Position numbers and translations under genes: made by a program. This document shows, one piece after another, positions 4,184 through 60,294 of a stretch of 64,000 bases of DNA. The notes beneath the pieces were generated by a model, which was not told where the DNA came from, ran no database searches, and was given only the letters and a program-made list of their open reading frames with translations. The first letter of the stretch is position 1. Each line of letters begins with the position of its first letter. Source of the stretch: an uncultured virus (IMG/VR IMGVR_UViG_3300044267_003392) (lineage: Duplodnaviria; Heunggongvirae; Uroviricota; Caudoviricetes); the IMG/VR virus record IMGVR_UViG_3300044267_003392; one strand, written 5' to 3'.

Positions 4184-4722
4184 ACTTCCATGTCAAAATA
4201 ATTGAACGGAGGTATTCTACCTTCGTTTTCCATTTGCTCTCTTTGTTTTTGTTTAAACATAAAGTCTAACATGTAATCGTATAAATAATCTTTTTGTTCG
4301 TCTGTTAAAGGAACTCTTTCACTTTCTTGCATTCCTTCTGGTGTTGGTAATGATGCTATTCCTCCATCATCAAAACTAAATTTGTATCCAAAATCTAAAC
4401 CGTATTGATTATCGTCAATATCATATTGACCACCAAGACTAAAGATACCTGGGCCCATAGGCTTCTCGTAGTCGTACCTTATTGATTTGTCCCCTATATC
4501 TACGTCAGGTAAATACGGATCTATTTTTTCATAACTTTCTATAATAGGTCCTAATACACCAGAATTTTTTGCTGCATCAACAATATTATTTCTTCTTTCA
4601 GATATTTGAGGAGACAAAGAATTTTTAAATTGTCTAAACATTTCACCTCTTCGGTTTCTTATATCCTCTCGTCTAGAAAAATTATCACCAGATGTTAATA
4701 CACCTTTTTTTAAACTGCTCAC
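4180..4722 (-). CDS. Hypothetical virion-associated protein (FDDGGIASL motif)
   Basis: 180-aa ORF coupled to neighbours. Confidence 0.6.
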   Translation of the reverse strand: MSSLKKGVLTSGDNFSRREDIRNRRGEMFRQFKNSLSPQISERRNNIVDAAKNSGVLGPIIESYEKIDPYLPDVDIGDKSIRYDYEKPMGPGIFSLGGQYDIDDNQYGLDFGYKFSFDDGGIASLPTPEGMQESERVPLTDEQKDYLYDYMLDFMFKQKQREQMENEGRIPPFNYFDMEV

Positions 4723-7700
4723 ACTAAACTCCCTATACCTTTTTTAGTAAACGGATTGTCATTCATGCCTTGTTGTGGTTTGACATATTTACCTTGGTTA
4801 TTCATTATTGGATTCATTTCCATTAGCCCACCTCCTGCGGCGTATTGTGTTCCGCCACCATACTGTGCAGCAAGTGCTGCATCTGTATTACCTGTATATA
4901 ACGCGCCAGCTGCTGCTGGGTTAAAATTCTGGTTCCTATTTATCACCGACCCTGCACTGGCAGAATCATAACCGCCGACAGAAGCATCTGCTGCTTCTGG
5001 TGCAAACTGTGGTGCACCTAACGGTGGTGATTGACTAGGTAATAAATCTAATATTTTAGGATTAAGAGGACTGTCAAATATTTTTCCTGGAATAGATGGT
5101 GCTTGTTGTATTGCCTCTCCTATGCCCTCCATAACGTTTTGTCTTGTTGATTTTACTTTTTGTGCAACTCTAGAATTTCTGTTGTATTCTTTTTGTACTT
5201 GTTCCATTTCTGCAAGGTCTGCATCAAACGCTGCAAACTCTTCTGGATACATTCTAACTAATCTAGCAAAGTTTGCTTGTCTAATTGTGCTAGGTAGATT
5301 TACATCAGTTAAATTTTTTAACACTCTAATTGCAACTGGATTTGTTAAAACTTTACCGCCATAGTTAATTAAAAATGCTGCGGCACTTGCCATTAAAGGA
5401 CCTACGCCAATAACACCTGCACCCTCTGCCACACCTCTGCCAATTGCAGTCGATGGTAATAAAGAACGTGCAGCTCCTCTAGTTCCGGCCATTGTTGCAC
5501 GACGCATCATAAACTTAGAACCACTAGGCACACCGTTTTCAAATAACTTTTCTAATACTCTTGTTAAATCATCAAACTCTGCTAACGTTGGTAACCTTGT
5601 TGCATTTGTTTTCATCATGCCTTCAGGAACTTCTTCCCCTAATATTTCTTTTAAACCTTTACCTACACCAGTTTCATATATTTCATCATCAAACTTTTTA
5701 AATATTCCTGTTGCTGGATCAAATATTTCTAATTTAGATACTGTTGGTCCTGGTAATGCTTCTTTAAATAATCTATTTAATGGTCCAGTTGTTCCTATAC
5801 CAAGTGCACCTCTAAATGCTGCTGCGTCAAAAAACTGTACTCCTTCTTTTTCTTTTATTGCTGCATCAAAAGAATCTCTTATGTACATACCTAAACCATT
5901 TACATATCCACGGTCGCCTACAATTCTTCTAAGTGCTTGTATTTCTGCTTTACTATTAGGATTGCCTGCTCTTGCAGATTTAATTACTGTATCCCATAAA
6001 CTATGTGAACCACGTGTCGTGCTATTATTAAGTACAACACCAAATCCTCTTGTTGCAACTTCACCACCAGCTGCTGCTTTACCCACGTTGGTTCCGTATA
6101 ACATTAAACCTGATGATACAAATTTATCGTACGCATCAAAAGCTTTTGCCACGTCAGGATAACCCATTCTTTCTATTGATGCTACATCATTTTCCCACGC
6201 TTTCATTAATCTTGATATGTCATCTGCATAAGATGTTTCTGCTAATGTCTTATCTTTAAGTGGTGCTAGTAAATCATCAAGTTGTTCACGTAATCCTTTC
6301 ATTTGGTATACGTCACGTAAGCCATGTGTTCTGCCTTCGCCAACTGGTTTTATTATTTGGTTTTTTAAAACATTAATTAATTTATCACGAACTTCTGATG
6401 GTATAATATTACCAGATGGATCTCTTTGTAGTTTTAATTCATATTCTCTTAATGTTTGTTTAGCAACATTAACTAAATTTTCATCAGAAAAACCTTTGCC
6501 CATGCCTTCTGCAGCTTTAACAAAATCATCTTCTAATTGTTTTGCATGTGCAACAAAACCTCTATAGTTTTTAGATGCCAAGAAAGAAAAGTCATCTATC
6601 ATTTCATCTAAGTGTGCATACGGTGCGAACGCACCAATCATTTTTCTCATGACACCATCAATGTAAAAGTCACTTTGTTTTGCCATGTTGTTTTTTATAC
6701 TAATACCAAATATAGGAGCTGGTGATAGCATAGACGATATTTTGCCACCAAATCCACCGCCAACACTTGTACGTGCAACCATAGTGCCACCTATTTCTGC
6801 AGCTTCAGGAAACCATTCGTTAGTGCCAGGCTTTATTGGATCACGTGGACCAAGCCAATTAAATGCTTTTGAATTAGATAAACGAAATAAAAAATTACCA
6901 AGACCAAGTGGCATGTTGTATGATAATTTTTCTTTTGGTTGTTTTAATCCTTTTGTTGCAACTTGATCAAGCTCACTTTGTGAAGGCATCCATCGTTCTA
7001 ATATTCTTTGTTCACCTTCTAATATTTCTTTACCACTAACAACTCCTGGTGCTTTACTAGGTTTTTGTTTAAACATACCAAATGGGTATGTGCCTACTGT
7101 TCTTCTTAAACCATAAAACGTTGGTCTAAGTGCAAAGAAACCTGAAGTTAATCCTGCATCCCATATTGCTGCACTTGTAGCATTTTTAACTCTTTCCATT
7201 TGTTCTGGTCTATTAATACCTTGTGGTCCAAACGTTAATGCGTCCGGCACAACTGATGCTAATGCTGCATCAACAAGACTAGCTTGTTGATTAGGGTCAC
7301 GCATGTATCCTTTTGCTTTACCGGCTCTGTCCATAAGATCTAACATGCCTTCGTAACCATAATCTGCTACTCCAACAGCTAAAGCTCCACCAGTAACTGC
7401 TCCTACAGATCTTGCAAACCAGTTGCCTTTTGATTTTGCAAATGACTTTGCTGCACCTTTTAAAAATTTATCTCTTACAAGTTTTTCACCTTTTACAGAT
7501 CCTGCAATACCACCAGCAATATACATACTAGCTTCTACTGCCGGATAAGGATTAGGATTGTTTGTGAATAATCCTATGCCGTCACGTAAATCTTGTACTT
7601 CAGGTGTTAGTACAACATAATCATTTTCTGGTGTTAAACCTTCGTTAGCAAGTAAATCATTTGTTGCTTGTGTAGCTAGATCTAAAAATTTACTATCACC

Positions 7701-8096
7701 TGTTGTTTCGTATTTAAGTTTTGCAGCTTGTGCTATTTCTAAAATGTCATCTCTTACACGGTCTCTTCTTTCACGGTAATTTCTTGCGTTTTGTAATTCT
7801 GTTTTTCGTAACTCTTTGTCTGCTTTGGATTGTAAAATCCAGTTATCTTTTCCGTAACGCCATCCTGTTTTACCAAATGGTATATTCCAAGCAGAACCAA
7901 TTGCTGCCATAGGGACATCAAGAACTGTATCAATAGCTTGTCTGCCCTCCATTATTTTTTGTCTTTCTATTGATTGTGGAACGCCACCCTCAGTTGTCTC
8001 TCCTGTAAATCCTTTCTCTGCTGTGTATGCAGTTTTGTGTTCGTAAAAAGGTCTTACGGTTTCATTAAAAGCTTGTACTGAATTTTTAGTTGCCAT
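4719..8096 (-). CDS. Large internal virion / DNA ejection protein
   Basis: 1125 aa, helical, Ala/Gly-rich hydrophobic stretches, largest of three consecutive genes after the tail genes. This is the usual podovirus ejection-protein arrangement. Confidence 0.6.
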   Translation of the reverse strand: MATKNSVQAFNETVRPFYEHKTAYTAEKGFTGETTEGGVPQSIERQKIMEGRQAIDTVLDVPMAAIGSAWNIPFGKTGWRYGKDNWILQSKADKELRKTELQNARNYRERRDRVRDDILEIAQAAKLKYETTGDSKFLDLATQATNDLLANEGLTPENDYVVLTPEVQDLRDGIGLFTNNPNPYPAVEASMYIAGGIAGSVKGEKLVRDKFLKGAAKSFAKSKGNWFARSVGAVTGGALAVGVADYGYEGMLDLMDRAGKAKGYMRDPNQQASLVDAALASVVPDALTFGPQGINRPEQMERVKNATSAAIWDAGLTSGFFALRPTFYGLRRTVGTYPFGMFKQKPSKAPGVVSGKEILEGEQRILERWMPSQSELDQVATKGLKQPKEKLSYNMPLGLGNFLFRLSNSKAFNWLGPRDPIKPGTNEWFPEAAEIGGTMVARTSVGGGFGGKISSMLSPAPIFGISIKNNMAKQSDFYIDGVMRKMIGAFAPYAHLDEMIDDFSFLASKNYRGFVAHAKQLEDDFVKAAEGMGKGFSDENLVNVAKQTLREYELKLQRDPSGNIIPSEVRDKLINVLKNQIIKPVGEGRTHGLRDVYQMKGLREQLDDLLAPLKDKTLAETSYADDISRLMKAWENDVASIERMGYPDVAKAFDAYDKFVSSGLMLYGTNVGKAAAGGEVATRGFGVVLNNSTTRGSHSLWDTVIKSARAGNPNSKAEIQALRRIVGDRGYVNGLGMYIRDSFDAAIKEKEGVQFFDAAAFRGALGIGTTGPLNRLFKEALPGPTVSKLEIFDPATGIFKKFDDEIYETGVGKGLKEILGEEVPEGMMKTNATRLPTLAEFDDLTRVLEKLFENGVPSGSKFMMRRATMAGTRGAARSLLPSTAIGRGVAEGAGVIGVGPLMASAAAFLINYGGKVLTNPVAIRVLKNLTDVNLPSTIRQANFARLVRMYPEEFAAFDADLAEMEQVQKEYNRNSRVAQKVKSTRQNVMEGIGEAIQQAPSIPGKIFDSPLNPKILDLLPSQSPPLGAPQFAPEAADASVGGYDSASAGSVINRNQNFNPAAAGALYTGNTDAALAAQYGGGTQYAAGGGLMEMNPIMNNQGKYVKPQQGMNDNPFTKKGIGSLV

Positions 8097-11852: not shown

Positions 11853-12989
11853 TTATACCTCACTCATTGTTTCAGATTCTGGATCTAGTTTGTTCATCAT
11901 CTGATACATTTTTTTTGCTCCTGCATAACGATCACCGTTACCGAAGTTTTCCACGGCTTTTGCTGTCATAACAAATTCACCGTCAGATAGTTTTGCATCA
12001 ATCATATCGTCCTTTGGACCACCTGGGCCACTGACGTTGCCGCCCATGTCCATGTTTAGTGATGCTATTCCTCCAGCGTTCATCATCGCTCCAGTGTAAA
12101 ATGGATTGTCCATCTCACCTTCGATTAAACTTTCATCAACACCATATAAAAATGCTAATTCTTTTCTTCTTCTACGTTTAGCTGCTTCAAATTCTTCCTC
12201 CGGCGTGTCACGTCCTGCATATAATCCTGCTGCTTGTGATACTGCTGTAGGTAAAAAATTAGTTGTAAATTCACCTGGTATAATATTACCAGCTTTATCT
12301 CTTACTGCTTTAGTAAATATATCTGCTGAAGGCATTGTCAATGCTTTACCTGGAACTTCTTGTGAGTATAAAAATTCATCTGCAAGACCAGTTGCATCTG
12401 GATTTAATGTTTTACTAAATCCTGGCATAGCATCAGCTTGATTACCCACGTATTGATCTAACGAAGATGGACCCATCATTACTGATTCTGGTGTTCTGCC
12501 AAATAAAATATCTTGTGCTGTTACAGTTGGTGCTGTGTAAGGCACTGTTGTTGGAACTAAACCTGGTGTTGGTGTTCGAGATGGCATGAAGAAACCTTGT
12601 TCTACATCAACAGGATCAAAAGGTATATTTTTCATAGCTCCACCTGGCTGCATTGTTAATGCTTCTTGTGTTGTAGCACCTGCATTTGCTGCGTTAAATC
12701 CTCTTGCGGCGTTTGCTGCGCTTAAATATGAAAACGGTATTGATGTAAGACCTGCAGCCATTGCTGCTTTACCTGGTCTTCTTGATCCACTAAGTGCTGC
12801 TGTACCATAACCAAGTGCTGTTTGTTTTAACGCGTTGGCCATGAGTGGATTCATTCCACTAAATAAACTTCCAATTCCTAATTTTGCACCTAATCCACCT
12901 CCAAATAATGCACTTGCTCCACCTGTAAGCGCCATTGGTAGTGCCATTTGCACTATTGGGTTCTTCATTAATTTACTTAAAAATCCCAT
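11853..12989 (-). CDS. Virion protein with glycine-zipper N-terminus and C-terminal GPG..D.I.A.LSDGEFV motif
   Basis: GGNVSGPGGPKDDMIDAKLSDGEFVMTAKAV resembles the motif seen at the end of tape-measure/ejection proteins. Confidence 0.6.
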   Translation of the reverse strand: MGFLSKLMKNPIVQMALPMALTGGASALFGGGLGAKLGIGSLFSGMNPLMANALKQTALGYGTAALSGSRRPGKAAMAAGLTSIPFSYLSAANAARGFNAANAGATTQEALTMQPGGAMKNIPFDPVDVEQGFFMPSRTPTPGLVPTTVPYTAPTVTAQDILFGRTPESVMMGPSSLDQYVGNQADAMPGFSKTLNPDATGLADEFLYSQEVPGKALTMPSADIFTKAVRDKAGNIIPGEFTTNFLPTAVSQAAGLYAGRDTPEEEFEAAKRRRRKELAFLYGVDESLIEGEMDNPFYTGAMMNAGGIASLNMDMGGNVSGPGGPKDDMIDAKLSDGEFVMTAKAVENFGNGDRYAGAKKMYQMMNKLDPESETMSEV

Positions 12990-33023: not shown

Positions 33024-33497
33024 CTAGTTGTCTTTTTTACCGCCACCAAAGGTTACGCGAGAACGCCTGCTTTCATTATGTACAGGCATGCTAGGATGTT
33101 GGTCCTTGAGTGGATCGTTTGCAACAGCATCGTCTTTATCTTGCGCAACTTGTGCAAAATACTTTCTTCGCTGCTCAACAATTTCCTCAGGAATTCTTGC
33201 TAGCATCAAACCTCCGACAGCTATAACACCTTCGTATTTACCTGATTCCATTTGTGGCCATTCAGTGTCTGGGTATTCATCAGCTCTGACAAATTCCCAT
33301 CCTTCACGCATTCTAGCGGATACATTTTTTGAATCCATCTGTCCTATCGTTTCGGCCCTTATCCAACGGTGTTTAAAACCGTTAGGTGCAGGTGGTGCAT
33401 CTAACTGTGATGGTGGAGCCCATTCTTTCCTTCGTTCGGTTTTAACTCGGGTTTCAGACTCGCGTGATGGTAGTTTATTATTTTTATTTGTATTCAT
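33024..33497 (-). CDS. Conserved head-module protein
   Basis: W.PPSQLDAP.AP.G..HRWIR...REGWE.VR...GGL.LARIP. Confidence 0.65.
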   Translation of the reverse strand: MNTNKNNKLPSRESETRVKTERRKEWAPPSQLDAPPAPNGFKHRWIRAETIGQMDSKNVSARMREGWEFVRADEYPDTEWPQMESGKYEGVIAVGGLMLARIPEEIVEQRRKYFAQVAQDKDDAVANDPLKDQHPSMPVHNESRRSRVTFGGGKKDN

Positions 33498-35160: not shown

Positions 35161-35403
35161 TTAACAATCCCATTTACGCAAGGCTTTATTTATCCTAGAG
35201 TTAGGATCTCTCTTTGTTTTTGCCCCTGTTAATTTTTTCTTCATGCCACCCATACGTGCACAAAAAGATTTACGTCTACCACTTGTTTTAGATTTAGTAG
35301 GCGCTTTTAACGTGCCACCTTTATAGCTAGCACGTCCTTTTTTATTTAAACCACCTGACGGGCTTTTCCCTGCTTTACGTTGCCATGCTGCTGTTTTAGG
35401 CAT
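35161..35403 (-). CDS. Small basic protein (GGLN.KGR and RRKSFCARM motifs)
   Basis: 80 aa, Lys/Arg-rich, ends KALRKWDC. Confidence 0.65.
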   Translation of the reverse strand: MPKTAAWQRKAGKSPSGGLNKKGRASYKGGTLKAPTKSKTSGRRKSFCARMGGMKKKLTGAKTKRDPNSRINKALRKWDC

Positions 35404-35518
35404 ACTTAGTTTTTTTCCTTTTATTTTCTAAAACCATTCCACAACCTTTTGCTATGCCTTTTGGATTTTTATCTGATTTGGCTTTTCTTTGTTGTGATAT
35501 TGATTTCTTTTTAGCCAC
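35396..35518 (-). CDS. 40-aa basic peptide (not in ORF track)
   Basis: GTG start: MAKKKSISQQRKAKSDKNPKGIAKGCGMVLENKRKKTKYA*. Fills the gap with 8-nt overlaps on both sides. Confidence 0.55.
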   Translation of the reverse strand: MAKKKSISQQRKAKSDKNPKGIAKGCGMVLENKRKKTKYA

Positions 35519-35843
35519 GTTTTTTAGCTGGTTTTTTTGCTGTTTTAGCAGATTGCTTTAACGCTTTATCTGTAACAGTGCCTTTACCAGGTCTGCTCGT
35601 ACCTCTTTTTTTAGCGCGGTTCATGTAATAATATAAACCTTTTTTAACAGTACGACCGTCTTTTGTTACGTGTGTATCTTTTTTAGCAGATCCACCTTTG
35701 GCCATTTTCTTTTTACCTTTTGTTGCACCAGCAATTCTGTCTGCTGCTGTAGGCTTAGGGTTATTGTCAATACCTGCTTTTACAGAAAGCATTCCAAAAC
35801 TAGATTTTTTTCCGTTTTTCTTTTTCATTGTTTTTTTCATCAT
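35511..35843 (-). CDS. Lys-rich basic protein (MAKGG motif)
   Basis: 110 aa, ATGA coupling. Confidence 0.6.
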   Translation of the reverse strand: MMKKTMKKKNGKKSSFGMLSVKAGIDNNPKPTAADRIAGATKGKKKMAKGGSAKKDTHVTKDGRTVKKGLYYYMNRAKKRGTSRPGKGTVTDKALKQSAKTAKKPAKKRG

Positions 35844-36275: not shown

Positions 36276-36941
36276 TTAATTCTCCACTAAACTAACTATA
36301 CCACCTTTGGCAAATGGTTTTCCACCTGACAAAAATGCTTGGTTAACTTGTTCTTGTAAACTTCCTGGCCCTATTCTTGCTCTTTGACGAACTTGTCCTT
36401 GTGGTCCCATGTTGTAGGAAAAACCTCCACCACCTTGGCCACCGCCGCCACCACCGTAACGATATCCATAACCACCACCGCCGCCTCTACCAAAACCGCT
36501 GTAAGGGTCATAAATACCACGATCCACGAAGCCTTCTACTAACTGACCATTTTCATATAAAGCTCCTGGTCCTGCTATATATTGAAAACCTGTAGGAGAA
36601 TAACCTTGCGTGCCTGGAAGGTAAGTGCTGTAGTAAACATCAGGAACATTAGTATAAAACATTGCACCACTAGATCCAAGTCCTACACCTCCTCCTGCTA
36701 CTCCATACTGTTGATTGTAATCTTTTAAAGATGCAGCGTATTGTTCTTGCGGATTACTATATCCACCGTAAGCAGGTTCGTTGTAAGGAACATAAGCTTC
36801 TTGTTCACCACCACCGTAACTGCCTCCACCATATGGATTGCTTTGAGGTGCAGGTGTTCCATAATTAGAAGATGCTTGAGTATTAGTACCACCTGAAGTG
36901 GCCTCCATGTACTTACCAAAATCTTTTCCTCCGCCTGGCAT
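36276..36941 (-). CDS. Gly/Tyr-rich low-complexity protein ending FAKGGIVSL
   Basis: 221-aa ORF, TAATG coupling. Confidence 0.55.
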   Translation of the reverse strand: MPGGGKDFGKYMEATSGGTNTQASSNYGTPAPQSNPYGGGSYGGGEQEAYVPYNEPAYGGYSNPQEQYAASLKDYNQQYGVAGGGVGLGSSGAMFYTNVPDVYYSTYLPGTQGYSPTGFQYIAGPGALYENGQLVEGFVDRGIYDPYSGFGRGGGGGYGYRYGGGGGGQGGGGFSYNMGPQGQVRQRARIGPGSLQEQVNQAFLSGGKPFAKGGIVSLVEN

Positions 36942-38108: not shown

Positions 38109-38264
38109 CTATTTGCCTTTTTTAAGGCCACCCTTACGGTAACCTTTTTTAACCTTTCCACCTTTCTTCATTGTCATTCTTTGACCTGTTGCACGTGCAT
38201 GCTTTGTTGCTTGCTGCGCACCAGCAGAAGTATAGGGAAATGATCTACTACCTACTTTTGGCAT
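38109..38264 (-). CDS. 51-aa basic peptide with MKKGG and YRKGG motifs (not in ORF track)
   Basis: MPKVGSRSFPYTSAGAQQATKHARATGQRMTMKKGGKVKKGYRKGGLKKGK*, AGGAGG RBS. Confidence 0.65.
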   Translation of the reverse strand: MPKVGSRSFPYTSAGAQQATKHARATGQRMTMKKGGKVKKGYRKGGLKKGK

Positions 38265-38272
38265 ATTACCTC

Positions 38273-38539
38273 CTAATGTATTGTTGGTTTTGGCATATCC
38301 TTAAAGAAATGCAAAACTTCTTGTTGGTAATCAAAACTTTCAGCAACAGCCACAAACATTTCTTTTGTCTGTTCTGTTCCTAAAGCTTTTTCATACATGT
38401 TTCTTGTTACAGCCATCAAAGCTCCACAAACCTGTAAATAATCTTCACTACATTTTATTTCGCTTTCTGCAGCTTCTTCTATTTTCAGCATTGCGTCCCT
38501 AAGCTTGGTTAGTAGTTTTTTTGTTTGTTCTGTTTCCAT
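38273..38539 (-). CDS. Hypothetical protein
   Basis: 88 aa, overlaps the portal 3' end. Confidence 0.6.
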   Translation of the reverse strand: METEQTKKLLTKLRDAMLKIEEAAESEIKCSEDYLQVCGALMAVTRNMYEKALGTEQTKEMFVAVAESFDYQQEVLHFFKDMPKPTIH

Positions 38540-41018
38540 TATTACTTGCCTTTTGTTTCATAGCCTCCCTAGTGTTTGCCATGTTCTCTTTTAGTAATGC
38601 CATCGCCTCTGTAGAGTCCTCTTTATTAACATCGGCTGCAACTTTCATCAAGTTAATAGTTGTGTCTGCTTCTAATTTATCTCTTTCAATATCAATTTTT
38701 TCTGCATCAAATACCATGTCTTTTTGCATCTGCATTTGAGTTTCCATAGCTTTTAAGTCAATTTCTTGTTGTTTTAATTTAACAAGTGGATCTTGAGCTT
38801 CTTTGCTTATTCTAGCTTCTTCATCAGACGCTAATTGTTTTGTCATTTCTGCTTCAATTTTTGCTTGTTCTGCTGCTTGTTGATTTATTAATTGATCCAT
38901 CTGCTGTTGTAATTGTTGTACTGCTTGGGGGTTTTGTTGTGCCTGTTGCATTGCTTGTTGTAACTCTTGAAACTGTGGTCCGTATTTTTCTTGCATTTGT
39001 TCACTCGCCATTAATGATATGTGTTCTGATACATGAGCTTGTAACATTGCATATAACTGCGGATTAATTTGTACCATTCTTGTAAACATAAATTCTGCAT
39101 GTGCAGATATATGTGACATATGATCTTGCATAGGAAACGGTTTTGGTTCTTTGCCACGCATTGCACCAGCGTTTTCCATTGCAGGTGACATAGGTTGTGG
39201 ATTGCCTGGATCTGGTAGTAATAACGATTCTACATTATCAACACCCATCGCCGCATACATTCTTCTATATGCTTCACGTAAATTGTGTAATTGTGGTGCA
39301 GCATTAGCAAGTTGTAATTGTTGTTGTGCTAATGTAACACGTTGTGCCATAGAAAATATGTTAGGGTCAGATACAGGTAGTATATCTACTCTGTCATCAA
39401 AATCTTGTTGTTTAATCATTTGGTTTCCACCAACAACCATGTAAGGATATTGTGGTGGTAAATAAATAGAGAATACTTTTGCCAATAGTTTAAATTCTAT
39501 TTTTTGTGCATAGTGTAATCGTTTGTGTATTGCACTCATAACTTTTGTGCCACGCTCTATTAATGCTAGTGTTGTGCCTACAGGATTTTGTTCGTTGCCT
39601 TCACCCATTTTCATGTCTGCTATTGCAGCAAATGATTTACCTGCATCAACAGCGAAACCTAATAATTGAAATAATACAGCTGACGGTTCCTTGTATGGAA
39701 GCATCATTAATGATTCTTTTATTGATTGTCCTGTTACATCTACATCTCTAAACTCACCCGGTTGTAAAGGTTCATCGTGATCACGTATACGCATGCCACG
39801 TGCCTTAAAACCTGCTGGTAAGTTAGCAAGAGTACCTGCATCAATTAATTGTCGCAAAGCACTTGTTGCAGTTCTTGATAACCCACCAAGCATGTGGATA
39901 AGACCAAATCCATAAAAGCCTAATCCAGGGAGGAACTTATAGTGTACAAAATAATGGTTCTTCATAAAGTTTAGATCACCTTCTTTGTAATTTCTTTTTA
40001 TTGACAATATCTCTTGTGAGTATTGATCAATAGAAACTATGTAAGGTAATTTAACCCCAGACGTATCTTCAAATCCTGGTACGTCTGCATTTATATGCAT
40101 TTCCAATATTGTATGTTCTTCATCGCTAGAGCCATAATTTTTTTCTGCTCCATCTAATTCGTCTATTTTATCTGCAACGTCATCAGAATCAATTTGTCCA
40201 GTTGGTAATTCTATGTCACGGTAAAAACCTTGTAATTGTTGTTTACGTATATCGTTGCCACTTGTTTTTATAATGTGTGTAATTCTATCAGCTGATTCTA
40301 AATCAGTTGCCATGTAGTTTATAACAAGATCTTCACCTGCAACAAATTTTGCACAGGCACGTTTCATCAAACCATCATAGTAAACTTTTTTAAATGCAGA
40401 ACCACACAACGGTAAATAAAACAATAACTGGTCCATGTCTGGATCGTATTCTTGCATTACCTCTGTTATTTGGTAATTCATAAATTCTTGCACACGCTGT
40501 GCTTGTTCGTTTGTTTCAGGTGTTTCTACACCTACAACTTGAGTTCGTACGGGGCCGCTTGGGGGGAGAAGTTCCTTATACGCTTGGGCTTGAAACTGTG
40601 TAACAGATTCAGCGAGTAAGGGATGTACGACCCCGGACGCTCCTTCGAATGGTTGTGTGCGGTCTTCATATTTGAAGCCTAGCATATCAAGGCCTTTGAT
40701 ATAGGTATCTTCCCAATCTTTCCTTGAATCACGATCCGATTCGAATTCAGCTAGTAGATCACTTGCAAATCTACTTAATTCATTATCTTCTATATATTCT
40801 GCTAAATTAGCATCATGTGGTACTTGCGACAAATCTATTGGTGCGTTTGGATCTAAATTAATTTCTGCACTACCATCTTCTAGTAGTTCTACGTCAGATT
40901 CAAAGTCAACACCTTTCTCAGGATTAATTTCTATTTCCTCACCAGTAGGTTCTATTTCTAGTGCACCTGTAAGTGCTTCTAATGCTTTATCTATATTGTT
41001 TTTATTATTATCAGCCAT
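38499..41018 (-). CDS. Portal protein (P22-like, long Gln-rich C-terminal barrel)
   Basis: 839 aa. SRKDWE, HPLLAE...QFQA, LP..GSAFKKVY, GFYGFGL, LIDAGTL.NLP.G motifs. Downstream of TerL. Confidence 0.85.
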   Translation of the reverse strand: MADNNKNNIDKALEALTGALEIEPTGEEIEINPEKGVDFESDVELLEDGSAEINLDPNAPIDLSQVPHDANLAEYIEDNELSRFASDLLAEFESDRDSRKDWEDTYIKGLDMLGFKYEDRTQPFEGASGVVHPLLAESVTQFQAQAYKELLPPSGPVRTQVVGVETPETNEQAQRVQEFMNYQITEVMQEYDPDMDQLLFYLPLCGSAFKKVYYDGLMKRACAKFVAGEDLVINYMATDLESADRITHIIKTSGNDIRKQQLQGFYRDIELPTGQIDSDDVADKIDELDGAEKNYGSSDEEHTILEMHINADVPGFEDTSGVKLPYIVSIDQYSQEILSIKRNYKEGDLNFMKNHYFVHYKFLPGLGFYGFGLIHMLGGLSRTATSALRQLIDAGTLANLPAGFKARGMRIRDHDEPLQPGEFRDVDVTGQSIKESLMMLPYKEPSAVLFQLLGFAVDAGKSFAAIADMKMGEGNEQNPVGTTLALIERGTKVMSAIHKRLHYAQKIEFKLLAKVFSIYLPPQYPYMVVGGNQMIKQQDFDDRVDILPVSDPNIFSMAQRVTLAQQQLQLANAAPQLHNLREAYRRMYAAMGVDNVESLLLPDPGNPQPMSPAMENAGAMRGKEPKPFPMQDHMSHISAHAEFMFTRMVQINPQLYAMLQAHVSEHISLMASEQMQEKYGPQFQELQQAMQQAQQNPQAVQQLQQQMDQLINQQAAEQAKIEAEMTKQLASDEEARISKEAQDPLVKLKQQEIDLKAMETQMQMQKDMVFDAEKIDIERDKLEADTTINLMKVAADVNKEDSTEAMALLKENMANTREAMKQKASNNGNRTNKKTTNQA

Positions 41019-44000
41019 TTACAGCTATTCCCCCTCGTTTGTATGCGCCCAATCCTTTAGAAATTCTATCTATTGCTTGTGGATTATCCTTTATAAGCAA
41101 CATTGGAACTTCATAAGCCCTATTGTTGTCATCAACTATAACAGATTTCATAAATTTTGCACCACTTTTTTTAGACACTTTTTTCATTGCCCCTTCTGCT
41201 ATTGGACCGTAAGCAGTTATGTTACCTATGTAATCTCTACTGCCCACTGATGTGCTTCTATTTTTTATTGCTGGTGTTGATATGGATATGCCATCATACC
41301 CACCTTCTTGTGCTGTTTTAAGTGCATACTTCATAACAAACTCGTTATAATCTTCTGTTTTAGAGTATGGTCCTTGAGGTATACCACTATTATCACCAGA
41401 ACCAGCTGCTGCTCTTTTATCTGCAATAATTTTTCTTATCTTTGCACGCTCTCTGTTTAATCTTGCTAGTCGCACTTGTGTTTGTTTTGTTTGTGGCATT
41501 GATAATAAATCTTCTATCTTGGATTGTATTAACATCATTTGTTGCTCGTTTGCATTATCTGTCTCTCTTACCAAATCACCACGCTCTGCATATTTTGATT
41601 GTCTTAGATCATCGCGGTATGCACGTTGGTTTGTTTGTCCTGCTGCCTGTGCTTTTTTAACTCTTCTGCCTGCAGCATTTACTGGTTGGTGCATATCAGA
41701 TTGTATTTCTTCTATGTGTAATATTCTTCTGCCAAATTCATCTGTTCTATCAGACGTACGCATGTGTACAAAACCATTATTTCGTTGTGAAGTTGTTAAA
41801 TTAAAATCATGCGCGTATGTGTATGATGGTTCTGTATTACGCAGTGATCCTGGTTTGTGATTGTACTTAAATAAAAACTCACGGTAGTTTGATCCACCAC
41901 CCATTGTTTGTTGTCCACGATAACTAGCTTCTCTCGCATACTCTTTAAATCCTCCAAGTCTTACACCAGTTGTTGATGCAATTTCTTGTAATGGTTGTTT
42001 TAATTCGTACGGAAACTTTTGTGGAAATCCTTCTGTAATAGAATTAGCAACACCAAAGTTTTTTTGCACTAGATCTTCTATAGTTGCAATTTCTTTTAGT
42101 ATTGCATCTTTGTTATTATTATTTACTGCTTCTTCTAATGAAGGTATTCTCATTTTCATACCACTTAAAACATTTTTTAATGGTCCAGGTCTATATGCTT
42201 GTAAATCTGTTTTTCGGTAAAGTCTAGTAAGTGCTTTTGATTCTTTTACCTTAGGTGAGCCTAATGATATTACATCTATTTCAGGTGCAAGCTTTGTATC
42301 AAACTCTTCTATTATCTGTGCTTTTGATAATGTCTTATTTCCGTTTCTAGATAAGTGTGTCGATAATTGTGTATCATTTAATTCCATGTCCTTAATAGGA
42401 TTGTGTTTTGCAAATGGTCGTTTTAAATATGCTAGCCATTCTGATCCTTTTGCAGACTCCATTGGTGCATCTATAAGTTTCTCACGTGATGACCAAAACA
42501 TTGCACCAGCTGTGTCATCTTCCGGGAATTTAGCTTTTTTTGAATAACTTGTACCTATGGTATACATATCAGCTGAACCACCAGCTCGTGCATCATCTCT
42601 TAAAAAATTTCTAGCTGCTTTTTCTGTATCAAAATCTTTTATTGGCAAACCAGCTTCATCAAAAACTGTAAACGGTTTATCCGGGCGCATTGGTCCTTGC
42701 TTTTTAGGCCCTGTTATTTTAGGAGAGTATTCTCTTAACTTGCCTATTACTTTTGGTGCTAGTTTCTTTACCAGTCCACCGCCGACAAAATTTTGTGGAT
42801 TAGCTTTTATTTCTTTTACTGCATCACTAACTGTAAACTCTTTAGCCATGCCACCTTGGTTATATGATTTATAAAATTTGTGTGCACCATATTGATCTAT
42901 ATATTGAGGTGCTTGTGATAAACCAAAATTACCTTCAGTTCCTGGCAACGCAAAAAAATCTGCCCCACCTGTAAAATCTTGTTTGTTACCTGCTAATATT
43001 TCACCGGCATAATTGTAATAATCATCATATGTTTTATTGCCTGTGTAATCTTTAAAAAAATTTGTTTTAGATTGAGTGTAAGGAGAAAATCCTGTTGAGG
43101 AAGAAAGAACACTAATTATAGGGCTAATGCCTTCTGCTCTATTAGGCATGTATATACTAGGATTTTGAGATCTATTATAAATTACATGACCTACACCATA
43201 TCCTCCTTGCGGATTTTTATCATCCTCTGCCATCATCATACGTGCCATTGCTTCCTGATCAGACATGTTTTTTATAGCTTTAAATCTTTCACCTTGTCTT
43301 CTGGATATTCCGTATTCTCTGTATGCATCACGAGATGCATCACGAGGATTAGGTGGTTTGTCTTTTCTTTTTACTTGAATACCACCTTTATTAAAACCGT
43401 GTATGTTGCCACCTCTAAATTGTGATTCAAAATCCATTTCCATTTCTTCGTCTCTTAAATTTTTTAATCTTTTTTGTTCTTTAGCTATTTGTTTAGCTTT
43501 TGCTTTTGTGTTGAATATGTTACCAGATGGGGAAAAGGAATCAATAAAACTTTCGAATAAGTCTGTATAGTCACCGTCCTCAGGCAGGGAAGCAAAGTCT
43601 TTCATCTTTTCACTACCGTCACCACGCATAATGCCCATCTTTCTTTCGAACGCTTGCATCTGTGATGGTGTAGTTACATCCCAAGTAATTGGATCATCTT
43701 TTGCATAATCTTCTGGTGACGTCATGTAATAATTCTCATCAACTATTTCTACTTGTCCTGTTTTCTTATCTATGTAGATGTGTTGGTTATTAGCAAAGTC
43801 ATCGCGAATATCAAACTCTATGTGTAGGTCACCGTTTTTTTCTTTTGTCATGTTAACAGGAACTTTGTAACCATCCGAGTTTGTAATTTCATATGATTGT
43901 GTATTTCCCTTGCTACCATAATTTCTAATCCTAGTGCCATTTGCTAAAGTTCTTCCCATAGTATTTGGTCCACTTAATTGATCTAATACACCTACCATTG

Positions 44001-45207
44001 ATTTAATCCATGGTGGTGCACTTCTTGTTATTGTTTTTGTTGCAGCCTGGGCCGCTAGCGGCGTTAATTTACCCACAGGCATTGCTGCAGCAGCAGCTGT
44101 GGCACCAGTTTGTTTCATAAATTTTCTACGTGACGGATCAAACTTTGCACTGTCAATAATTTTTTGTAATCCTTTTTTAATTAGACCACCTTTTGATAAA
44201 CTATATTTGTCCATTAAATCATAATTAATAATCCTACTATCTAGTTCTTGTAAATAGTCATCTCTTCTTTGAGCAATTTCTCCTCTAGGTCTTGCTCTGT
44301 TTATTCCTCTAGGTTCATAAAAAACATTTTGTATATCCAAAGCTTTTGACAAATCGTTTTGTACAGGAATAACGTGACTTATTTCTGGTCTATCATCTTT
44401 TGTAAGTATTCCAATTTTTTCACCTCTTTTTATATCAGCAGCTCTTACATTTCTTTCTTTTAACATTTTTCCCCAAGCAGAATTATCTACTTGTTTTATA
44501 ACATTCTGTACTACTTTATCTTCTGGTATTTTTGCTGCTTTGCCACCTTGGATAGCTCTATTGACTTGTAAAAACAAAGAACTTCTTGCATTAATACCAC
44601 TCATAGTTTTACTTTCTGCTAATGAATCTATATCATTAAATAAATTTATTATTTTTTTATAATTTTTTTCTTTGAGACCAAGATCTGATTTTAATTTTCT
44701 ATCAATAGCAATTGGATTATCAAATTCATCGTACTTTTTAAAATGTCTTCCAAATGCCGAAAGCCCCATTTCAAAAGGTTTGTAATTTTTTCCTGTTGCA
44801 GGATCTATTCTTTTAGCAAGCACACGTTTTCTTTGGGAACTTACATTACGGCCAAACATTTTATCCATTTCTTTTGTTGTAAGTCGAAATAATTGCTTAT
44901 CGGGCATACTTTCAAGAGTATCCATAATGTATTTATTCTTATCTATAGCCTCGTCAGTAAGGCTAGTTTTAAGTTTTTTATTAACAATTGGTTTATCTGC
45001 GAGTACTACACGTGGTATAAATTTGTCTCGATGAAAACTAAAGTTTCCCTTTTCTCCCCTTGCCTTTAAAGGAGTAAGTTCATCAAGTTCATACCGCCTG
45101 CCGTCATATATGCCGTGTGATGCTACCTTTTGACCTTTTCTAGGTCCTCCAGGGATTCCTTCTTTTATTTTTTTAAAAACAATTTTTGCAAATTTTGCTT
45201 TAGACAT
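41011..45207 (-). CDS. 1398-aa multidomain virion protein: HNH-like segment, Tat-signal-led segment, SleB/Hydrolase_2-like cell-wall hydrolase, EEIQSD-type C-terminal domain
   Basis: ISH...N........N (about aa 276-303); SRRKFMK (359-365); MMAE...GVGHVIYNR...GFSPY...GGADFF...YGAHKFY (610-784); ILHIEEIQSDMHQ. Confidence 0.65.
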   Translation of the reverse strand: MSKAKFAKIVFKKIKEGIPGGPRKGQKVASHGIYDGRRYELDELTPLKARGEKGNFSFHRDKFIPRVVLADKPIVNKKLKTSLTDEAIDKNKYIMDTLESMPDKQLFRLTTKEMDKMFGRNVSSQRKRVLAKRIDPATGKNYKPFEMGLSAFGRHFKKYDEFDNPIAIDRKLKSDLGLKEKNYKKIINLFNDIDSLAESKTMSGINARSSLFLQVNRAIQGGKAAKIPEDKVVQNVIKQVDNSAWGKMLKERNVRAADIKRGEKIGILTKDDRPEISHVIPVQNDLSKALDIQNVFYEPRGINRARPRGEIAQRRDDYLQELDSRIINYDLMDKYSLSKGGLIKKGLQKIIDSAKFDPSRRKFMKQTGATAAAAAMPVGKLTPLAAQAATKTITRSAPPWIKSMVGVLDQLSGPNTMGRTLANGTRIRNYGSKGNTQSYEITNSDGYKVPVNMTKEKNGDLHIEFDIRDDFANNQHIYIDKKTGQVEIVDENYYMTSPEDYAKDDPITWDVTTPSQMQAFERKMGIMRGDGSEKMKDFASLPEDGDYTDLFESFIDSFSPSGNIFNTKAKAKQIAKEQKRLKNLRDEEMEMDFESQFRGGNIHGFNKGGIQVKRKDKPPNPRDASRDAYREYGISRRQGERFKAIKNMSDQEAMARMMMAEDDKNPQGGYGVGHVIYNRSQNPSIYMPNRAEGISPIISVLSSSTGFSPYTQSKTNFFKDYTGNKTYDDYYNYAGEILAGNKQDFTGGADFFALPGTEGNFGLSQAPQYIDQYGAHKFYKSYNQGGMAKEFTVSDAVKEIKANPQNFVGGGLVKKLAPKVIGKLREYSPKITGPKKQGPMRPDKPFTVFDEAGLPIKDFDTEKAARNFLRDDARAGGSADMYTIGTSYSKKAKFPEDDTAGAMFWSSREKLIDAPMESAKGSEWLAYLKRPFAKHNPIKDMELNDTQLSTHLSRNGNKTLSKAQIIEEFDTKLAPEIDVISLGSPKVKESKALTRLYRKTDLQAYRPGPLKNVLSGMKMRIPSLEEAVNNNNKDAILKEIATIEDLVQKNFGVANSITEGFPQKFPYELKQPLQEIASTTGVRLGGFKEYAREASYRGQQTMGGGSNYREFLFKYNHKPGSLRNTEPSYTYAHDFNLTTSQRNNGFVHMRTSDRTDEFGRRILHIEEIQSDMHQPVNAAGRRVKKAQAAGQTNQRAYRDDLRQSKYAERGDLVRETDNANEQQMMLIQSKIEDLLSMPQTKQTQVRLARLNRERAKIRKIIADKRAAAGSGDNSGIPQGPYSKTEDYNEFVMKYALKTAQEGGYDGISISTPAIKNRSTSVGSRDYIGNITAYGPIAEGAMKKVSKKSGAKFMKSVIVDDNNRAYEVPMLLIKDNPQAIDRISKGLGAYKRGGIAVNG

Positions 45208-46199
45208 TAGTCCCTCATGTATTCATTAACTGCGTCTTGTAAGTCAGGGCTTATTCTATCTTGTTTTTTCATTCCTTTTCTAAGAAATCTTTTTGCTAAT
45301 GGAATACCAAAACCACCACCAAGTTCCATGGCAAAACTTAAGTCTTGCAATCTTTCTTTTTCTGGTCCTTCATACTCCATGAACGGAAGAACATATTCGC
45401 CTTCTGCTGCATACTTTAATGGTAAGTTTGGTAATCCTGGAACTTTAATATTACCTAAATCAAATTTTCTTAATCCTGGACCAACTAAATCATCAACAGC
45501 AACATTTGAATCAAAAATATTATAACCAAATTTATTTATTGAACTTTGTGATGCTAAATTATTTAGATCTTGCATATATTGTGAAGATAAATTGCTATCA
45601 TACAATTCATCAAATTTTGCAGTAAACATTTCGTCTTCCATTGCTTTATAATCTGCTATTGTTTTATTAGGATTGTTAACAGCAAAAGTTGAAAATGAAG
45701 GCATTACACTATCAACATAATTGTAAGCATCGTCTGCTATGTTTTGAAATTCTGGTTCGTATTTAGAATCTATAGTAGCTTGGGTGTCTAACATTAAATT
45801 TTTACTTAATGATTCATCCATCATAGGGTTTTCAATAGTTAAACTTGGTAGTCCTGTAAATTCATTTATTAAAGCGGAAACTGTATCTTTTCCTCTGTCG
45901 GTTATAATATTTTGAAAATCAATTCCTGGTATTAATGTATTTCTTTCCATGCCCTCTTGTGTAAATGGGTTGTAATAATCTGCGCTTGCAAATTGATCAA
46001 CTACAGCGCCTGGAATATCACCTGCAAGATCACCTATAAAAGTTGCTGCATCAAGTAAAGCATTTCCTGGTGCTCTAACAAGTGTGTCTGCATATAAATC
46101 TGGGTTTGTTAATCTGTCTACGTTAGTATCGCCGTACGATTGATAGATCTCTGGTAAATCCAGATAATCGGCTAACGCCATTATTCCTGTGCCAAACAT
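45207..46199 (-). CDS. Acidic hypothetical protein
   Basis: 330 aa, TAATG-coupled to TerL and to the polyprotein. Confidence 0.6.
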   Translation of the reverse strand: MFGTGIMALADYLDLPEIYQSYGDTNVDRLTNPDLYADTLVRAPGNALLDAATFIGDLAGDIPGAVVDQFASADYYNPFTQEGMERNTLIPGIDFQNIITDRGKDTVSALINEFTGLPSLTIENPMMDESLSKNLMLDTQATIDSKYEPEFQNIADDAYNYVDSVMPSFSTFAVNNPNKTIADYKAMEDEMFTAKFDELYDSNLSSQYMQDLNNLASQSSINKFGYNIFDSNVAVDDLVGPGLRKFDLGNIKVPGLPNLPLKYAAEGEYVLPFMEYEGPEKERLQDLSFAMELGGGFGIPLAKRFLRKGMKKQDRISPDLQDAVNEYMRD

Positions 46200-47650
46200 T
46201 AATAGTACTCCCTCCCTCCGACTTGTGTCGTTTTCTCATCTTCGTAATCATCTTTTAACCCAACATAGTAGCCTTGTCTATATTTCATTAAAGCTTGCGT
46301 GGTAGAATCCACGTAGTCATCGTGATCACCGAAAGGAAACGCTGCGCATTCTTCTATCACTTCCTCGGCGAACTTTTTATTGGGCGCCCATATAGCTCCT
46401 GACTCAAATAGTGGAGCCACGCTGTTTACCCTCGAGTGTTTATCATTTCCTCGTGAGGGTGTATAATTTATAACAGGTATTCCTGCTTTTTGCAACTCAT
46501 GAGTGAGTGGCATGCCAGATGCCTTTGCTTCTATCAAAATTGTCTCCGGTTCCCAGTATTTATATTCTTCTTGTGCTATTTGTTTTAGTTCAGGAAAGTT
46601 CCAACGTCCTTTTTTCGCGTCCAGTAGAATTAATGCTTGCGGACCACCTTCTTCAGGCTCAAATACGCCCCATGTTGTTATTGCCGAGTAATCGGCTGTC
46701 TCTTTTGCACTAAACGCTGTATCATAGCTTTGTATAATGTATTTTAGGTGCGGAATTGTATCTTCTTCCCATGTTTGCCACCATTCACGTTTTATAAGTG
46801 CACCTTCCTCGGATGTAGGCTGTTGCATCCACTGTGCTTGCCATTTTGACTCTGGAATAGATGCCTTGACACCTTGTAGACCTTTCATGGTCCAAAAATT
46901 ACCCCACATGGGTTTGTCATTTATAATTGCAGGGAATTCGACAACTTCCCATTGATCAGAATCTTCTGCCTTACCCTGGGCCTCGAGCAGCCGTCCAGTG
47001 AGATCTTTTATTGACCATCTTGTCATAACGACAACGATTGAACCGCCAGGTTGTAGACGTTGACGCGGACCGGATGTATACCATTCGTAATGTGAGTCTA
47101 GAACGGCCGGCGAAAGTGCATCTTGCTCGGAATGAGGGTCATCAATGATAAGTAAGTCTGCACCACGTCCTGTAATCGCACCACCCACACCTGCAGCGAA
47201 GTATTCACCGCCATGGTTTGACTCCCAACGGCCGGCGGCCTTTGAATCAGCTGCTAATCTGACTGTAGGGAAAACTGTTTCGTACTCTGGCGACTCTATA
47301 ACGTTCTTGGCCTTCCGACCGAACCTAATTGCCAGTTCGCCTGTGTGTGTTGTTTGGATAAGCTTGGCCTTTGGATGGTTGCCCATGTAAAATGCAGGAA
47401 AAAGGTTAGATGCGAACTCCGATTTTGTATGTCGGGGTGGCATATTGACAATAAGGCGCTTTAATTCGCCTTTTGCAATACGATTTAGCTTCTCTGCGTA
47501 GATGCGATGGTGTTTTCCTTCTATAAAATCAGGCCAAACAGTCTTGACAAACGATAAAAAATCATTTTGTGACTTTTCTTGCTTGTCTAACAGCGCATTT
47601 TTAAGAATATACTTTAAAGTTTGGGTATCAAGCGTCTCTAAATTGCTCAT
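46199..47650 (-). CDS. terL: Terminase large subunit
   Basis: Walker A NMPPRHTKSE, GRGADLLIIDDP (Walker B), MTRW, nuclease SYDTAF and HDDYVDS. Confidence 0.93.
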   Translation of the reverse strand: MSNLETLDTQTLKYILKNALLDKQEKSQNDFLSFVKTVWPDFIEGKHHRIYAEKLNRIAKGELKRLIVNMPPRHTKSEFASNLFPAFYMGNHPKAKLIQTTHTGELAIRFGRKAKNVIESPEYETVFPTVRLAADSKAAGRWESNHGGEYFAAGVGGAITGRGADLLIIDDPHSEQDALSPAVLDSHYEWYTSGPRQRLQPGGSIVVVMTRWSIKDLTGRLLEAQGKAEDSDQWEVVEFPAIINDKPMWGNFWTMKGLQGVKASIPESKWQAQWMQQPTSEEGALIKREWWQTWEEDTIPHLKYIIQSYDTAFSAKETADYSAITTWGVFEPEEGGPQALILLDAKKGRWNFPELKQIAQEEYKYWEPETILIEAKASGMPLTHELQKAGIPVINYTPSRGNDKHSRVNSVAPLFESGAIWAPNKKFAEEVIEECAAFPFGDHDDYVDSTTQALMKYRQGYYVGLKDDYEDEKTTQVGGREYY

Positions 47651-58202: not shown

Positions 58203-58625
58203 CTAAACAGCCACTTTATTATTATTTTCTTTGGCATAAAATTTTACTTTTTTTAACATACTGTGCACACCATTGTTTCTTCCTGGTGTTAACAATGAAT
58301 CAAGATTCATTTTCTCAAACTCTTTTTGATTAAAATCATTAATATCCTGGGCCCTAGATCCACTGTACACGTCCGCAATAATACAGACCATGCCTTTGCT
58401 AATCAATGCAGCTGAGTCAGCACTAAAATATATTTTATCGTCAACAAAATGTGGTACTAACCATGTCTGTGATTGACATCCAGGAATCTCAAATGATTTA
58501 ACTTTATGATCTTTATTCATGTCTCTAGAATTTTTTCCAAAATCCATAATCCATAAAAATTTATCTTGATCTGAATCTATATTATTTAGTACTTGCAGAT
58601 ATCTTTCTAATTTTCTTTTTATCAT
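58203..58625 (-). CDS. sufE: SufE/CsdE-family sulfur acceptor
   Basis: IPGCQSQTWL (catalytic Cys), ADSAALISKG, LTPGRNNG. Confidence 0.9.
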   Translation of the reverse strand: MIKRKLERYLQVLNNIDSDQDKFLWIMDFGKNSRDMNKDHKVKSFEIPGCQSQTWLVPHFVDDKIYFSADSAALISKGMVCIIADVYSGSRAQDINDFNQKEFEKMNLDSLLTPGRNNGVHSMLKKVKFYAKENNNKVAV

Positions 58626-59223: not shown

Positions 59224-60294
59224 CTATACTCCACATAATCCTTCACACTCATCGGCAAATTCCTCATCGAATGTTTCGCCAAATAATGAAGCTTGTTTTT
59301 TTGGTTCCAAGAAATCTATATCGCGAAGTGGTTTTGCTGATTTGTGCAAAAACAATTCTGATGTTGTATTCTTTAAACCATGTCTAATCTTATCATCAAC
59401 TTCACATGCATCTGCAAAATCTTCCGGATAATTCTTTTGCATGTTTTTCCATTGGTCGTTATGATGATAAGGGCACCCTATGCACGATGATTTACCTGGC
59501 ATAGGGTGTTTTTTAATATCACGATACCACTGAAGACAATCCATACGAGACATCTTCATTTCTATTAAAGGCCAACGTGATGTTAACCATGGTAGCCTAG
59601 CGTTTTTCATACGCATAGCCTCGTCGGTAGATATACCAATCCACTGTTCAACCAACATGCCTTTCTTAACACGGTGTCGTGGTTTAATACCTAACAACTC
59701 TCTAATCTTTTTTTGAATAGGAATAACTTTATAATCATGTGTACACTGACGATAAAGCATTCCTACTCTTCCACCAGGACGAGCAGCAAACAACGGTGGG
59801 TTTGGTACACGTCCAGCAAACGATTTTTCCTCTTCTCTAGACCCTGGTTCTGGGTTCGCTGCTTTGATAAGATCCTCGCGGATGTTACCTCTTTCCACAG
59901 TGATCAGCGGACAAATTGTTATTGCTTTCTTTAAATATTCTACATGTTCATACACAAACTTAGGTTCCCACCCAGTGTCTGCAAATATCATGTAGTCTGG
60001 TTTATGTTTTGTTAATCCTTCTTGCGCCATGAGTGCCAAACAGGAAGACTGTACCCCTGCCCCGAGTGATAATATGCGCATCGTCGGTTCGCGTTTGTTT
60101 CCTTCTTCGTCAAAGTACTCTGGTTCTTTTGTCGCCGCAACTGCTGCCATATTGTTGAGCTTTTTACGATCAATTTTCGTAGACATTTGTTCAAGTACTT
60201 TTCTTCTTTCAAATTCCATCTGCTCCGGATTAATAGCAAAGCTATTCTTTTTATTCTCTAATCTTTTTTTCCTTGTTTCTTTATTTATGCTCAC
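59224..60294 (-). CDS. PAPS-reductase-like (PP-loop/AANH) protein with Cys clusters
   Basis: ILSLGAGVQSS (PP-loop variant), IFADTGWE, QCT.DYK, IGISTDE..R, KSSCIGCPYH, C-terminal CEGLC. Confidence 0.8.
   Translation of the reverse strand: MSINKETRKKRLENKKNSFAINPEQMEFERRKVLEQMSTKIDRKKLNNMAAVAATKEPEYFDEEGNKREPTMRILSLGAGVQSSCLALMAQEGLTKHKPDYMIFADTGWEPKFVYEHVEYLKKAITICPLITVERGNIREDLIKAANPEPGSREEEKSFAGRVPNPPLFAARPGGRVGMLYRQCTHDYKVIPIQKKIRELLGIKPRHRVKKGMLVEQWIGISTDEAMRMKNARLPWLTSRWPLIEMKMSRMDCLQWYRDIKKHPMPGKSSCIGCPYHHNDQWKNMQKNYPEDFADACEVDDKIRHGLKNTTSELFLHKSAKPLRDIDFLEPKKQASLFGETFDEEFADECEGLCGV

Follow-up and report, generated by a model that had tools for sequence, protein, structure and literature searches.

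A conserved Gly-Gly tag at the module joints of a putative cargo protein of a marine podovirus and the Tat-type leader behind it

Of what use could an export signal be when it lies inside a phage protein? The question is raised by an open reading frame (ORF) of 1398 amino acids (aa) in an uncultured virus, IMG/VR record IMGVR_UViG_3300044267_003392, of which 64,000 of the 66,361 bases, further referred to as the window, were analysed. The ORF (41011..45207; all features given below lie on the minus strand) is located between the terminase and the portal. Its product is divided by short Gly-Gly motifs, here called tags, and behind the first of them it carries a stretch resembling a twin-arginine translocation (Tat) signal, here called the leader. 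We propose, with a probability of roughly 0.4, that the ORF encodes a packaged capsid cargo, and that its tag both loads the protein and is cut, unmasking the leader for routing by the host Tat system. By kinship the phage is a marine podovirus of the HTVC023P/HTVC027P type: its portal is 51% identical to the portals of these two Pelagibacter phages, and its gene order matches theirs (terminase, 330-aa gene, 1398-aa ORF, portal, small genes, GroES, scaffold, capsid, tail, ejection module).

Gly-Gly tags and module joints

A preliminary description made from the sequence had placed GG pairs at aa 340–341, 608–609, 785–786, 809–811 and 1392–1393 of the product, and these positions are correct. 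The protein has 16 GG starts, only five of which fit the pattern Phi-x-x-G-G-Phi. We take this pattern, rather than GG alone, as the signal because some GGs mark no joint; thus, the GG of TMGGG inside segment 5 is invariant, yet no joint is found there. The five hits compare with 1.05 in 5000 shuffles (P = 0.0024, a value that is optimistic because the pattern was composed after the data had been seen). Tag 1, LSKGG (aa 337–341; 44185..44199), joins segments 1 and 2, and tag 2, FNKGG (aa 605–609; 43381..43395), joins segments 2 and 3. They are followed by tag 3, YNQGG (aa 782–786; 42850..42864), and tag 4, FVGGG (aa 807–811), which closes segment 4, a linker of 25 aa (42775..42849). Tag 5, YKRGG (aa 1389–1393; 41029..41043), lies 5 residues before the C-terminus.

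For comparison, 160 loci were fetched using segment 5 and the terminase as queries; 88 ORFs match segment 5, and loci L002 and L003 carry identical copies of the 1398-aa ORF. The suggestion that the tags fall at domain boundaries was borne out, as homology between relatives switches at the motifs. DNA identity to locus L009 changes from 58% to 97% across tag 1, from 95% to 33% across tag 2 and from 75% to 97% across tag 3, and identity to locus L007 changes abruptly at tags 2 and 3. Six groups of segment 1, with 14, 6, 3, 1, 1 and 1 members, were distinguished among 26 complete copies. The slot of segment 3 (n = 48) is occupied by three families, of 25, 15 and 5 members, that are unrelated by BLAST, and the module is absent in three cases; by Pfam the families are a cell-wall hydrolase, SLT (both muralytic) and a third one without a match. 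Relatives also encode segments as separate genes, as the preliminary description had thought worth checking: segment 5 is a free gene in loci L084–L086, where the preceding genes end in a tag. In a sliding-window test, which mixes swaps with the edges of conserved cores and uses non-independent pairs, 101 of 467 switches were at most 10 aa from a tag, against 29.5 expected. That test aside, the comparisons show the five tags to be real module joints at which relatives swap, drop or split modules.

The tag is conserved at the protein level: all four Gly codons occur in it and vary freely, and GGAGG is not favoured. Its distribution is strongly biased towards protein ends. The 860 distinct complete ORFs of at least 150 aa contain 340 strict tags; of these, 87 are no more than 12 aa away from the C-terminus, where 6.2 would be expected, and 86 of the 87 have tails of 3–9 aa. 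Since a cut near the C-terminus of a free protein separates nothing, the tag must do more than split domains. Tandem tags also exist, and some small basic proteins consist largely of tags. When segments 2 and 5 were modelled separately, confidence was low where the tags lie, which is weak evidence because the models end there.

Of the 74 window genes, 9 have a strict tag: the 1398-aa ORF, three small ones close to the portal, two belonging to the ejection module, and three for Gly-rich or tail-region proteins, in which the tag is probably due to chance. Tagged products include a neighbour of 221 aa whose tag is 7 residues short of the C-terminus (36276..36941), a 51-aa basic protein with two tags (38109..38264), a 110-aa basic protein with one (35511..35843) and a putative ejection protein of 1125 aa with a tag near its C-terminus (4719..8096). 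In a 378-aa ejection-module protein (11853..12989) the tag is followed by a small domain common to tape-measure proteins. The HTVC027P genes with a tag are gp41, 42, 44, 47, 49, 82 and 84, and the fetched stretches of CRP-901 and RW contain few tags.

Several tag-like features were seen in other proteins. Among the terminase homologs (TerL, loci L081–L160), 16 of 97 end in a tag-like F-R-Q/E-G-G-L stretch; should this end be what docks to the portal, a similar site might serve the cargo tag. A conserved 157-aa gene between scaffold and capsid (33024–33497) ends in V-T-F-G-G plus a few residues; ESM Atlas returned hypothetical clusters only, with no family, for its product. The C-terminal small domain of the 378-aa protein (11853–12140), preceded by tags, matches PDB entry 8zdo (E = 3.6e-6), and the tape-measure-like domain also occurs in HTVC023P, HTVC027P and RW. 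It was considered as a reader of the tag and rejected: Caulobacter phage RW has the domain but few tags near its portal, so co-occurrence gives no support.

The leader and the modules around it

The leader (aa 342–392; 44032..44184) is modelled with low confidence. It scores 21.3 bits against TIGR01409 (cut-off 16.7; match at 44080–44133) and 20.2 against Pfam TAT_signal, under the cut-off of 22.7 (aa 358–377); TIGR01409 is matched at E ≤ 0.1 in 21 of 26 aligned members. It fits the S/T-R-R-x-F-L-K consensus, which is kept across sequences of about 35% identity, with the RR at aa 360–361 as described earlier. The layout is that of a Gly/Ala-rich stretch ending in Pro, then a basic residue and A-x-A. 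The hydrophobic (h) region has 14 uncharged residues and a best 12-aa hydropathy of 1.15 (family median 1.03), and at least 12 uncharged residues are present in 45 of 61 copies.

As had been predicted, the RR pair is conserved, and nearly every copy follows shortly after a tag or stands where a gene begins. From 80 segment-2 matches, 15 truncated ones and four without RR in range were set aside. In the remaining 61, RR lies 13–22 aa behind a tag in 33 copies and 6–25 aa from the gene start in 25; two are at contig edges and one is a mis-pick. A second lineage, found via locus L134, has a homologous leader (hhalign 94%), with RR only 2–4 aa behind a tag in many copies and a median h-region hydropathy of 1.66. 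When 87 distinct leaders were pooled, 58 lay 2–30 aa behind a tag, 23 at a gene start, four at neither and two at edges. Thus for 81 of 87 the nearest tag or gene start is no more than 30 aa away, and such zones account for 14% of residues; these counts come from related loci and are not independent events. In the window, no in-frame ATG, GTG or TTG lies between tag 1 and RR.

A leader profile searched against 1.84 billion proteins gave 54 matches, including two proteins, P0067 and P0075, that appear to be unrelated head-type polyproteins and, judging by the motif, may be T4-like. Each carries the same leader (15–16 of 25 residues identical) twice, about 6 aa behind L-x-E sites and in front of unrelated acidic passengers, and neither has a strict GG tag. 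According to the part of PMC9026906 used here, L/I-x-E is the cut rule of T4 gp21. The occurrence of the leader behind such sites is the best argument that it needs a cut in front of it. The passengers are acidic (median pI 5.07 and 5.03), and segments 1 and 5 are basic. From its sequence features, Tat export by this leader is plausible, with a marginal h-region. HTCC1062, the Pelagibacter host of HTVC027P, has tatA, tatB and tatC, and gp41 and gp42 of that phage are late genes (PMC12753301, in part).

Segment 1 (aa 1–341; 44185..45207) is basic (pI 9.9) and occupies a variable slot. The HNH-like end attributed to it stands as far as the pattern goes, with His and Asn invariant in 14 rows; the profile matches are weak, both to Cas9 HNH chains (E = 0.3–0.55, His and Asn aligned) and to Pfam HNH (E = 0.068 in one of 14 members). 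The same end (44185–44556) weakly matches crAss cargo protein 2 (PF25712, E = 0.004, below the cut-off). The body of segment 2 (aa 393–609; 43381..44031) is an acidic (pI 5.1) beta-meander domain. A fold search with it gave no clear match (best Z 6.8), with the acidic inhibitor Ugi among weak, generic hits (Z 4.6), and nothing useful came from searching PDB sequences with profiles of segments 2 and 5.

Segment 3 (aa 610–786; 42850..43380) contains a SleB-type cell-wall hydrolase (PF07486, SleB/Hydrolase_2; 34.9 bits, cut-off 27), and the slot holds SLT or another family in relatives. It is not exactly the hydrolase domain, as had been stated, since the Pfam match covers only aa 667–779. Segment 5 (aa 812–1393; 41029..42774) is basic, bears the EEIQSD domain and has a predicted GNAT-like core. 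Its model (predicted local distance difference test score 80) resembles in fold large polyvalent phage proteins ("large polyvalent protein associated domain" entries, E = 2e-8). It also matches 8g8k (Z 8.2, root-mean-square deviation 3.7, 154 of 162 residues aligned) and residues 601–764 of ICL2 (Z 8.2), both tied with coiled-coil rows; this part of ICL2 is described as a GNAT-like domain in the portion of PMC6788997 used here. Matches to several acetyltransferases are weak (E = 0.3–1.4). Foldseek against PDB gave no match to segment 5 at E ≤ 0.001, and ESM Atlas gave hypothetical clusters only. Distant relatives of the EEIQSD domain (25–30%) occur in contigs of metagenome-assembled genomes (MAGs) of Lachnospiraceae, Oscillospiraceae and Campylobacteraceae (L167–L171).

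The ORF is flanked by the terminase large subunit (46199..47650) and by the portal (38499..41018; phrog_1216), which has no tag; the portal gene is apparently in two pieces in loci L079 and L080, perhaps through an insertion or a fault of assembly. An 80-aa DUF6321 protein (35161–35403) may represent another mobile cargo module, because in PHROG matches this domain forms the C-terminal end of far larger proteins. Beside the DNA polymerase are auxiliary genes of the SufE and PAPS-reductase-like kinds (58203–58625 and 59224–60294). When cultured phages were searched with the ORF by tblastn, two weak matches came up. A scan of bacterial genomes gave no host; it yielded a pair of short contigs from a Kiritimatiellia MAG and five distant matches.

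Loading, cutting and export

As far as sequence comparison can tell, the feature is real and conserved, and the mechanism is what we infer from it. The preliminary description had already suggested that cleavage after GG frees separate effectors and bares a Tat signal; this view is partly supported, for the cleavage indirectly. Swappable modules would be chained at the tag, which would load the protein into the head. A cut after the tag would then give the leader-bearing module a new N-terminus and hand it to the host Tat system. The tag a few residues from the C-terminus suggests loading, and the position of the leader suggests cutting; one peptide might do both, because the T4 capsid targeting sequence does so (PMC9026906, in the part used here). 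Segment 3 would open peptidoglycan during entry, the nuclease-like segment 1 and the GNAT-like segment 5 would act in the cytoplasm, and segment 2, which is acidic, would end up in the periplasm or the inner membrane, where its most plausible role, suggested here very tentatively, is to block later infection. Packaging and ejection of the product are probable, cutting after GG by some enzyme is slightly favoured, and productive Tat recognition of the leader is evenly balanced.

Several observations weigh against this mechanism. No protease was recognized by Pfam or PHROG among the 73 window proteins scanned, many genes being unannotated, and a motif screen found neither HExxH nor JAB. The tag is present in none of 35 scaffold, 17 capsid and 145 portal homologs, unlike in T4 gp21 substrates, which together with the missing protease argues that it is not a T4-type head maturation code. 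Tags 3–9 aa from the C-terminus and tandem tags gain little from cutting. The h-region (1.15) is below the 1.35–1.80 of seven E. coli Tat substrates, only 21 of 61 copies have at least 13 uncharged residues, one gene-start clade carries Lys inside the h-region, and the leader of HTVC027P gp42, missed by TIGR01409, has KR instead of RR, a change that is poorly tolerated in Tat signals unless hydrophobicity compensates (PMC7317946, in part). Leaders at gene starts would be exposed in the producing cell and compete with packaging, and the leader may stand behind tags just because it begins a once-separate gene module. Literature searches turned up no virion proteomics.

Some of these observations would follow if the tag were an uncut docking or loading signal. 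Recombination at the tag would then fuse modules, and the protein would be delivered whole, its leader read internally or not at all. The C-terminal bias with short tails, the tandem tags and tag-rich small basic proteins, and the lack of a recognized protease or of tags in head proteins all favour this reading. Internal recognition by Tat exists as well: the earlier statement that such signals work only near an N-terminus does not hold, as actinobacterial Rieske proteins use an internal one (PMC7317946, in part). We nevertheless regard an uncut tag as possible but rather doubtful, given that the same leader stands behind L-x-E sites in other polyproteins, that its distance to the tag is kept at 2–30 aa, and that cytoplasmic-type and envelope-type modules alternate in fused forms of up to 157 kDa. 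Whether or not the tag is cut, the RR leader may not export anything: it might be a TatC decoy, a membrane anchor or an amphipathic ejection helix; the acidic beta domain would then work inside the cytoplasm, perhaps by mimicking DNA. The short and weak h-region with its Lys in some clades, the KR of HTVC027P, the basic amphipathic stretches that start other modules too and the generic Ugi match point this way. The full consensus kept at about 35% identity and the second-lineage h-regions, which are within the E. coli range, make it unlikely.

A late lysis factor rather than virion cargo is also conceivable, cut at tag 1 only, so that segments 2 and 3 would be exported by Tat in the producing cell and the hydrolase would reach peptidoglycan. 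The hydrolase does lie directly behind the Tat module, and the homologous gp41 and gp42 of HTVC027P are late genes (PMC12753301, in part). However, the tag between segments 2 and 3 is conserved, the hydrolase is missing from 3 of 48 slots and also where the leader stands at a gene start, for instance in L087, L217, L222 and L225, and the head-module location and kinship to polyvalent proteins speak for cargo; this alternative is quite improbable. It is barely credible that the motif is no protein signal and arose as a side effect of Shine-Dalgarno sequences or of internal starts of translation. Gly-Gly codons can spell GGAGG, and many tags are near the start of the next gene, but GGA encodes the first Gly in 36 of 273 motifs, the background being 39%, GGAGG occurs in 44 of 273, and a start codon with a Shine-Dalgarno-like stretch is present in just 8 of the 58 after-tag leaders, 11 of which lack ATG and GTG altogether. 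Codon usage and start-codon counts thus contradict it.

With a sequence tag that marks cargo, genomes would be enough to tell which proteins are injected; the tag also points to a machine for loading or cutting that is not a known head protease. If injected cargo does carry a Tat leader activated by cutting, phage proteins would have a route into the host envelope that our literature searches did not find described. In its broadest form the proposal is speculative and has the odds against it: abundant marine podoviruses would have a Gly-Gly peptide code for loading and cutting interchangeable capsid cargo and would do so with no classical head protease, and the Tat leader, a portable element also present in T4-like phages with another cut code, would enable a protein injected together with the DNA to be exported again, by the host Tat machinery, into the periplasm as infection is just beginning.

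Comparison with known systems

Phage polyvalent proteins are large and multi-domain, are encoded beside portal and terminase, and have been proposed to be packaged, injected and processed (PMC5512222, Iyer et al. 2017, in part). The present protein resembles them in its place in the portal-terminase module and in its peptidoglycan-attacking and putative nuclease and GNAT-like domains. It differs in having no named LPD, MuF, zincin or MPTase domain by Pfam and no built-in peptidase; in the portion of the PMC5512222 main text used here the words "glycine", "SleB" and "twin-arginine" do not occur. In bacterial Tat signals (TIGR01409; PMC7317946, in part) the same S-R-R-x-F-L-K, Gly/Ala-rich stretch to Pro, basic residue and A-x-A are found; here the signal is internal in a soluble phage protein and its h-region is weaker than those of the seven E. 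coli substrates.

The internal proteins and Alt of T4 offer a parallel for a dual tag, as one short peptide, the capsid targeting sequence, directs cargo to the head and is cut by gp21, and the cargo is ejected with the DNA; targeting and cutting were measured in T4 (PMC9026906, in part) and are inferred here. The tag described here is Gly-Gly based and mostly C-terminal or internal, the scaffold, capsid and portal do not have it, and a head protease was not seen. In adenovirus and African swine fever virus, which are eukaryotic viruses, polyproteins are cut after Gly-Gly by a known cysteine protease. A cut rule ending in GG would likewise separate structural modules in the present case, where no protease was recognized.

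Neither the tag nor a Tat leader buried in phage cargo was found described in literature searches, which had scant reach into subscription papers. A cultured counterpart is gp41/gp42 of HTVC027P (MN698241), which shares the gene position, the tags and the order of an HNH-like module, a tag, a K-R-x-F-I-K leader and a small acidic domain; it differs in having no tblastn match to the 1398-aa ORF and KR for RR, and is annotated as hypothetical. Since HTVC027P and HTCC1062 are a cultured pair, the tag is directly testable. This locus offers the occurrence of both features in one protein, leaders at gene starts, one leader family across two joint codes and a cultured test system.

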